DNA of 64,000 nt from Escherichia coli. GTDB taxonomy: Bacteria; Pseudomonadota; Gammaproteobacteria; Enterobacterales; Enterobacteriaceae. The notes under the pieces are model-generated. The model saw only the letters and a program-made list of their open reading frames with translations. It ran no database searches and was not told the DNA's origin. The stretch is taken from NCBI RefSeq assembly GCF_003334785.1, contig NZ_QOWV01000001.1; one strand, 5' to 3'. Positions 62,856-63,156 of the stretch are shown here, in pieces. Within the stretch, counting starts at the first letter, position 1. Each line of letters begins with the position of its first letter. The position numbers and the translations under genes were made by a program.

Positions 62856-63156
62856 CCCGGTAAGCACAAAACGCGTGAAAATTCCCCACGCTGAGATGAT
62901 TTACTGTTCTTCTTTTCGGTAAGCATATTTTTTATCGAAGGGATGTGAAATTAATCACAGTAGTCGAAGTTTTTAGCAGCTTAACTTACTGAAATTTAAG
63001 TACTGATGATTGACTTAGCCCCTTTTTCGGCATTGACTATGTCGTCTGAAAAGGGGCTGAAAAATTTATTTTCACCAACACTTTTTTTGCCACAACACGA
63101 AGCGGCGCTTTTTGCTATAACTTAGAAAGTAATATAATCATCTCAGGAAACTATTC

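Follow-up and report, generated by a model that had tools for sequence, protein, structure and literature searches.

Intrinsic termination of transcription in Escherichia coli needs U residues that directly abut the stem of the terminator hairpin. Rho-dependent transcripts of the same species are reported to have precise ends at stable stem-loops without a U-tract, downstream of which C exceeds G (Dar & Sorek 2018, PMC6061677). For the spacer between tehB and ydcL, a computational small RNA prediction is available in Shigella flexneri, where Ssr15 was placed in the SF1779(ydcL)/tehB spacer (Wang et al. 2016, PMC4782007); it rests on the prediction of a promoter and a terminator and is not marked as validated by RT-PCR. 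A literature search on tehB or ydcL together with CRP, a terminator or a small RNA returned, on the spacer itself, only Ssr15 and a table of RpoS SELEX results.

The E. coli spacer contains an inverted repeat, for which an earlier note had offered three possible roles: a small RNA, a regulatory structure in the ydcL leader, or a protein-binding site. The analysis presented here indicates that the repeat is a real, conserved RNA hairpin, and that it most likely represents an ordinary structure, of the kind without a U-tract, at the 3′ end of the tehAB message rather than a new regulatory RNA, because it occupies the slot in which relatives carry the terminator of the upstream gene. This plainest reading was absent from the three alternatives.

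Locus organization

The window, a stretch of 64,000 nucleotides, is E. coli K-12-like DNA, and the query region matches K-12 derivatives at 100% identity. Coordinates in MG1655 (NC_000913.3) are obtained by adding 1,439,300 to the window position. The spacer between tehB and ydcL measures 301 bp (62856-63156), as the earlier note had stated. The features of the locus that surround the hairpin are as follows.

62262-62855, + strand: tehB, last gene of the tehAB operon
62856..63014, + strand: presumed tehAB 3′ UTR before the hairpin, from the comparative analysis
63157-63825, + strand: ydcL, the downstream gene, encoding a DUF3313 lipoprotein
63834-63853, + strand: canonical terminator of ydcL, from the terminator scan

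According to the MG1655 annotation, IS609 starts 36 bp past ydcL (MG1655 position 1,503,161, window position 63861), and the end of the window (63861-64000) is insertion-sequence DNA.

Structure of the hairpin

The inverted repeat AGCCCCTTTT / AAAAGGGGCT has arms at 63017-63026 and 63049-63058, which pair perfectly over 10 bp, and both arms are exactly as first described. The distance between them is 22 nt and not 23, and the repeat ends at 63058 and not 63059, so that each of the two original figures was off by one. The loop is also not long, as had been thought, since the interior folds further and leaves only 5 nt at the apex. Folding of the region, which had been proposed as a check, yields a stable hairpin on the + strand with the following parts.

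63015..63060, + strand: complete hairpin, 46 nt, from fold, repeat, conservation and covariance model
63015-63027 with 63048-63060, + strand: outer helix of 13 bp, including the perfect 10-bp arms, from the fold
63045-63047, + strand: bulge of 3 nt, from the fold
63028-63033 with 63039-63044, + strand: inner helix of 6 bp, from the fold
63034-63038, + strand: apical loop UGACU, 5 nt, from the fold

The hairpin lies 160 nt from the tehB stop codon, on the same strand. Its folding energy on the + strand is -25.9 kcal/mol, compared with -11.5 ± 2.6 kcal/mol for shuffled sequences (z -5.6), and none of 200 shuffles was as stable. The fold of the - strand is weaker by 7 kcal/mol (-18.8 kcal/mol, z -3.8). 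The exact pattern of the repeat was recovered in none of 100 shuffles, and in the 64-kb window as a whole, perfect inverted repeats of 10 bp or more with a loop of at most 30 nt number 12, against 1.7 ± 1.3 in Markov simulations. Chance is an unlikely explanation for the repeat.

Distribution of the hairpin

About 5,400 of 5,426 E. coli genomes carry the hairpin, as do all sampled species of Escherichia. It is a single-copy element: in each of 5,407 E. coli genomes it occurs at one place, and no second copy lies in the 64-kb window or in the related loci. A REP/BIME element or another dispersed extragenic palindrome is rejected on the same grounds, namely one place per genome and no further copies. 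A covariance model built from the Escherichia alignment matched, among 57 sources, only its own Escherichia input sequences, and a permissive Rfam scan of 62600-63400 (E ≤ 10) returned only sub-threshold chance matches to snoRNAs and foreign sRNAs. An open reading frame of 39 aa that runs over the hairpin (63006-63125) was rejected as coding, because it contains 1-nt indels among LR14, O157 and L004 and because its interspecies substitutions are mostly non-synonymous.

Two E. coli strains carry rearrangements in the hairpin. GPEC1354 (L087) has a 36-bp tandem duplication within it. In ET210 (L088, about position 363), the 3′ arm breaks after AAAAGGGG and is followed by unrelated sequence that leads into IS1 transposase genes; ydcL is not annotated in the stretch retrieved from this strain.

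Conservation within Escherichia

Three SNPs were found in the stem among E. coli genomes, and all of them retain pairing: G63059A converts a U·G pair to U-A, G63030A converts G·U to A-U, and T63027G allows a new pairing with U63045. The variants fold with energies of -25.7 to -26.4 kcal/mol, and the E. coli SNPs thus keep or improve the pairing of the stem.

Comparison between species was made with the GTDB representatives of Escherichia (L002-L006), including E. albertii. The outer helix is retained in all of them, and the inner helix is variable. Standard pairs account for 92.6% of the pair cells across the Escherichia species, compared with 32-66% in controls in which the pairing partners were slid. 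Two pairs are changed on both sides. A shuffle control reached the observed covariation score in 12 of 500 runs, and the observed percentage of paired cells in 86 of 500. Covariation inside Escherichia is modest, because the sequences are close to each other.

Between species, the hairpin is 83-89% identical (L003-L006, with the close relative MOD1-EC7003 excluded), compared with 70-80% at third codon positions and 62-77% in the proximal spacer (62856-62990), which serve as neutral proxies, and with 94-96% in the ydcL promoter region (63061-63156). The proximal spacer evolves about neutrally, and an identity of the hairpin between the neutral and the promoter levels fits an element that is constrained in structure. 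The block directly before the hairpin (62991-63014) is 79-92% conserved.

Escherichia sp. MOD1-EC7003 (L002, 2326-2500) has undergone a clean loss of about 129 bp, corresponding approximately to 62862-62990, which shortens its spacer to 174 bp and removes the CRP site described below. The hairpin is kept in this genome about 40 nt past the tehB stop, with a U·G pair changed to C-G and a folding energy of -26.3 kcal/mol.

The corresponding position in other genera

A scan for YdcL with one genome per species produced 80 loci. In most of the other genera sampled, the ydcL ATG is preceded, at a distance of roughly 95-105 nt, by the end of a canonical hairpin with a U-tract. These genera include Enterobacter, Leclercia, Lelliottia, Klebsiella, Raoultella, Kluyvera, Yokenella and Trabulsiella, and the terminator is found there irrespective of whether the upstream gene is tehB or another gene. 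The distance from the end of the E. coli hairpin to the ydcL ATG is 96-98 nt, and by this comparison the hairpin is the positional equivalent of the upstream-gene terminators of its relatives.

In Citrobacter and Salmonella (L007-L026), where the tehB-ydcL spacer is about 150-175 bp long, the equivalent position about 100-140 nt upstream of ydcL is occupied by a hairpin of unrelated sequence. The consensus fold from RNAalifold contains 11 pairs, four of them with compensatory double changes, and several of its U·G pairs would turn into C·A mismatches on the opposite strand. This hairpin likewise has no U-tract. Its apical loop consists of U6-U8 and an A-run follows the structure; in both Escherichia and the Citrobacter/Salmonella group, the U-run is inside the structure rather than after it, as in a terminator turned inside out.

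The comparison bears on the proposal that the repeat is a protein-binding site. A palindromic operator would be expected to have a sequence conserved between genera and to show no strand asymmetry; here the sequence differs between genera and the strands are unequal. In Citrobacter and Salmonella it is the pairing that is retained, through compensatory changes in a different sequence, and the G·U pairs of both groups work only on the + strand, which argues for an RNA structure and not a DNA operator. The difference in folding energy also favors one RNA strand, and the E. coli SNPs that turn G·U into A-U, which are neutral for an RNA, alter one arm of the palindrome. Furthermore, the centers of the arms are 32 bp apart, which is atypical of the operator of a dimer. 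A role at the DNA level, either as an operator for a transcription factor acting on ydcL or as a cruciform, is thus extremely unlikely, even though a perfect 10-bp palindrome does precede the likely ydcL start by about 70-110 bp and a duplicated ATTGACT (63009-63015 and 63032-63038) is invariant in Escherichia. Inspection by eye for matS, IHF and sigma-54 motifs gave no match. Taken together, the evidence indicates that selection acts on the hairpin as an RNA structure of the tehB strand.

The hairpin might also be what is left of a former canonical terminator or of a rearrangement, now decaying and without function. Such an origin could account for the U-run within the 5′ arm (GCCCCUUUUU) and the A-run within the 3′ arm, which resemble an inside-out terminator, and the tandem duplication of 36 bp in one E. 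coli strain and the IS1-associated break of the 3′ arm in another speak for it as well. A relic would not, however, be expected to keep its stem throughout the sampled Escherichia species and about 5,400 genomes, to show an identity above the neutral rate with changes that preserve pairing, or to have as its counterpart in the sister clade an independent hairpin kept by compensatory change. This explanation is considered quite unlikely.

The hairpin tail and transcription termination

The A/T-rich stretch that had been noted after the inverted repeat is present as GAAAAATTTATTTTCACC at 63059-63076. The hairpin tail is (U)GAAAAAUUUAUUUU; after the stem it reads GAAAAAUUU, and the stretch AAAAAUUUAUUUU is part of it. 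Only 3-4 U residues occur in the 9 nt past the stem. Since the classical terminator d-score is uncalibrated for modern folding energies (true terminators obtain negative values), its T-tract term alone was used; this is 0.16-0.44 for the hairpin, 3.6 for the ydcL terminator and 2.1-3.3 for the terminators at the orthologous place in other genera. The earlier remark that the structure is not an obvious intrinsic terminator was therefore sound. As in canonical terminators, a stable stem-loop containing G+C lies past the stop codon on the coding strand; the U run that such terminators have directly past the stem (at least about 5 U within 8 nt) is missing. A canonical intrinsic terminator is rejected on account of this lack of a U-tract adjoining the stem.

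A weaker, non-canonical form of intrinsic termination would release part of the transcripts in GAAAAAUUUAUUUU without Rho, and the remainder would read into ydcL. This differs from the reading favored here solely in how the polymerase is released. Position and strand are those of the canonical terminators of relatives, the stem is strong, the RNA:DNA hybrid past the stem would consist entirely of A/U, and a distal U-rich run, UUUAUUUU, starts 6 nt past the stem. The low T-tract score relative to the canonical range (2.1-3.6) and the small number of U residues near the stem speak against it, as does the dependence of intrinsic termination in E. coli on U residues that abut the stem; in addition, the terminator scan did not call the tehB-ydcL hairpin. 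Weak intrinsic termination is accordingly rated unlikely.

The curated Term-seq data of Adams et al. 2021 contain no 3′ end at MG1655 1,502,1xx-1,502,4xx, which low expression of tehAB could explain, and the tables of 3′ ends and Rho regions in that study have no entry named tehA, tehB or ydcL. The silence of Term-seq is mild evidence that no abundant small RNA has its 3′ end here in LB or M63.

The ydcL promoter region

The sequence between the hairpin and ydcL is promoter-like, as the earlier note had recognized, and it contains the following features.

63059..63078, + strand: A/T-rich tract after the hairpin, not a terminator U-tract
63082-63096, + strand: core of the ydcL promoter region, T-run plus GCCACAAC, nearly invariant across genera of Enterobacteriaceae
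63113-63121, + strand: predicted extended -10 of ydcL, sigma-S type, TGCTATAAC, nearly invariant across genera of Enterobacteriaceae

All genera share an upstream region of ydcL that consists of AAWTTGTGC, a T-run followed by GYCACAAC, and the nearly invariant TTTGCTATAAC. The last of these is taken to be an extended -10 element with C at -13, of the sigma-S type. AAWTTGTGC, which follows the upstream terminator in other genera, is replaced in Escherichia by AAATTTATTTTCAC. The A/T-rich tract occupies this place and thus belongs upstream of the ydcL promoter; its more plausible assignment is to the distal part of the promoter region, and 63062-63078 matches the UP-element consensus AAAWWTWTTTTNNNAAA with one mismatch. 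The distance of 23 bp from the T-run and GYCACAAC to TTTGCTATAAC is too far for a -35/-10 pair, which suggests that a conserved activator site is located there. In most genera, this element contains a 9-bp palindrome, TTGTCACAA, about 20 bp upstream of TTTGCTATAAC.

Genomic SELEX detected a peak of RpoS holoenzyme in the tehB>ydcL spacer (PMC5493296), and ydcL is probably promoted separately in an RpoS-dependent manner. A rob mutant is reported to have lowered expression of ydcL (PMC7537768); the E. coli spacer holds no marbox match within 3 mismatches. A perfect TATAAT is present at 63133-63138, 19 nt before the ydcL ATG, in all Escherichia, and is absent from other genera; it could be a second, Escherichia-specific -10 that gives a very short leader.

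The conserved -10 TGCTATAAC lies 53 nt downstream of the hairpin, and the hairpin is thus outside the main ydcL leader. This disfavors a regulatory structure in the ydcL leader, the second of the roles proposed at first. A ydcL riboswitch or attenuator is likewise rejected, as the hairpin does not lie between the predicted promoter and the start codon.

The CRP site and possible separate transcripts

The spacer contains a perfect CRP core, TGTGA-N6-TCACA, at 62944-62959, and the 64-kb window has no other perfect match. The core is intact in all four other Escherichia species, in which the surrounding spacer is 62-77% identical, and it is deleted in MOD1-EC7003. It is apparently maintained by selection, judging from this pattern, and was not found as a known CRP target in the literature searched.

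A separate, Escherichia-specific transcript that contains the hairpin could start from an unannotated, CRP-dependent promoter in the spacer. Its start would be near 62994, and its product would be either a short RNA of about 70-85 nt, induced by cAMP-CRP, that ends past the hairpin or a long second ydcL leader. If the latter were true, the hairpin would control read-through or stability in a CRP-dependent second leader of ydcL. The arguments for such a transcript are the CRP core, unique in the window and conserved amid diverged spacer; a weak -10, TAACTT, at 62982-62987, which puts the start near 62994 and the CRP center about -42.5 to -43.5 from it, near the class II position; and the conserved block 62991-63014. 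The promoter scan of the + strand was nevertheless negative there, and TAACTT shares only 3 of 6 bases with the -10 consensus. Unlike the terminator of an sRNA, the hairpin lacks a U-tail, the Rfam scan gave no match, and the Term-seq data, which include LB at OD 2.0, where cAMP-CRP activity is expected to be high, show no curated 3′ end. MOD1-EC7003 has lost both the CRP site and the putative -10 and keeps the hairpin, and Citrobacter and Salmonella have a hairpin with no such upstream segment in their shorter spacers. This transcript is consequently regarded as very unlikely.

The first of the proposed roles, a small RNA, is for much the same reasons not favored. Besides the missing Rfam match, U-tail and curated 3′ end in the MG1655 interval above, no good + strand promoter lies upstream, and the 129 bp that could carry one have been lost from MOD1-EC7003 with the hairpin kept. 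An Hfq-type sRNA would have a U-tailed Rho-independent terminator and a detectable discrete transcript, and neither is seen at this locus; the only lead to a promoter of its own is the conserved CRP core with the weak -10, and the scan found none on the + strand. A promoter in or just before the hairpin is also rejected, since neither of the two TTGACT motifs has a usable -10 at a distance of 16-19 bp and the scan again gave none.

On the minus strand, a promoter-like TTCACA-16-TATGCT is located at 62949..62922, with its -35 overlapping the CRP site. About 25 nt past the start predicted from it, a terminator-like hairpin specific to the minus strand, GCGTGGGGAATTTTCACGC followed by GTTTTGTGCT, is found at 62891..62873. 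The two elements could give an RNA of about 50 nt that ends antisense to the tehB stop. Within Escherichia the -10/spacer block AAGCATATTTTTTATC is conserved, but the minus-strand hairpin is poorly conserved outside E. coli. The Ssr15 prediction of Shigella, not marked as validated, is on the minus strand as well.

A proposed 3′-terminal stem-loop for the tehAB message

An RNA structure selected on the + strand, located outside the main ydcL leader and in the slot of a terminator, points to a terminal stem-loop in the tehAB 3′ UTR that acts as a barrier to exonucleases after Rho-dependent or leaky termination, a reading given slightly better than even confidence. The hairpin would be transcribed on the + strand within the tehAB message, just upstream of the ydcL promoter region. 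Release of RNA polymerase by the hairpin alone is probably inefficient, because there is no adjacent U-tract, and transcription of tehAB would most likely be ended by Rho or leak onward. Exonucleases acting 3′ to 5′ would then trim the RNA back to the stable hairpin, and the trimming would give a defined 3′ end and protect the tehAB mRNA.

The base composition of the flanking sequences was compared with this proposal. The C/G ratio is 1.67 in 63059-63156; in the corresponding promoter region it is 1.68 at the loci with canonical terminators and 1.10 in Citrobacter and Salmonella. The excess of C over G downstream is given little weight, because the loci with canonical terminators show an equal bias. 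The 3′ UTR before the hairpin is not C-rich, with C/G of 0.56-0.94 in 78-nt windows starting from 62880 to 63000.

If this assignment is correct, tehAB would be one more E. coli operon with a conserved stem-loop, lacking a U-tract and previously unannotated, that marks its 3′ end. The locus would also be an instance in which canonical terminators have been replaced by hairpins without a U-tract, in the Escherichia and the Citrobacter/Salmonella lineages. The hairpin would separate the tehAB unit from ydcL, a gene with a promoter of its own that is probably RpoS-dependent. Beyond annotation, the hairpin is of little importance; the apparently selected CRP site in the spacer is flagged as a further feature of the locus.

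Comparison with known systems

Like the mRNA-stabilizing hairpins of REP/BIME elements, the tehB-ydcL hairpin is an extragenic palindrome past a coding region that could block 3′ exonucleases. REP elements form a dispersed repeat family, in contrast to the single-copy hairpin described here. Ssr15 was predicted in the corresponding spacer of a member of the E. coli species complex (PMC4782007), but opposite in strand to the two genes and over the whole 297-nt spacer, whereas the G·U pairs of the tehAB hairpin favor the tehB strand.

Canonical intrinsic terminators, represented by that of ydcL and by those upstream of ydcL in Enterobacter, Leclercia, Yokenella and Kluyvera, lie on the same strand as the hairpin and at the same place with respect to the stop codon before them and the ydcL promoter after them; the stem of the hairpin is comparably or more stable. 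They differ from it in that the tehB-ydcL hairpin has its U-run inside the 5′ arm and none abutting the stem. With 46 nt and a bulge, it is also longer than a typical terminator stem.

The closest resemblance is to the protective stem-loops at which Rho-dependent transcripts end once exonucleases have trimmed them (PMC6061677). An excess of C over G in the downstream DNA is seen here too, but loci with canonical terminators show it as well. The features shared with the protective stem-loops are a stable stem with no U-rich tail at the end of a transcription unit and a place past the last gene of the operon.
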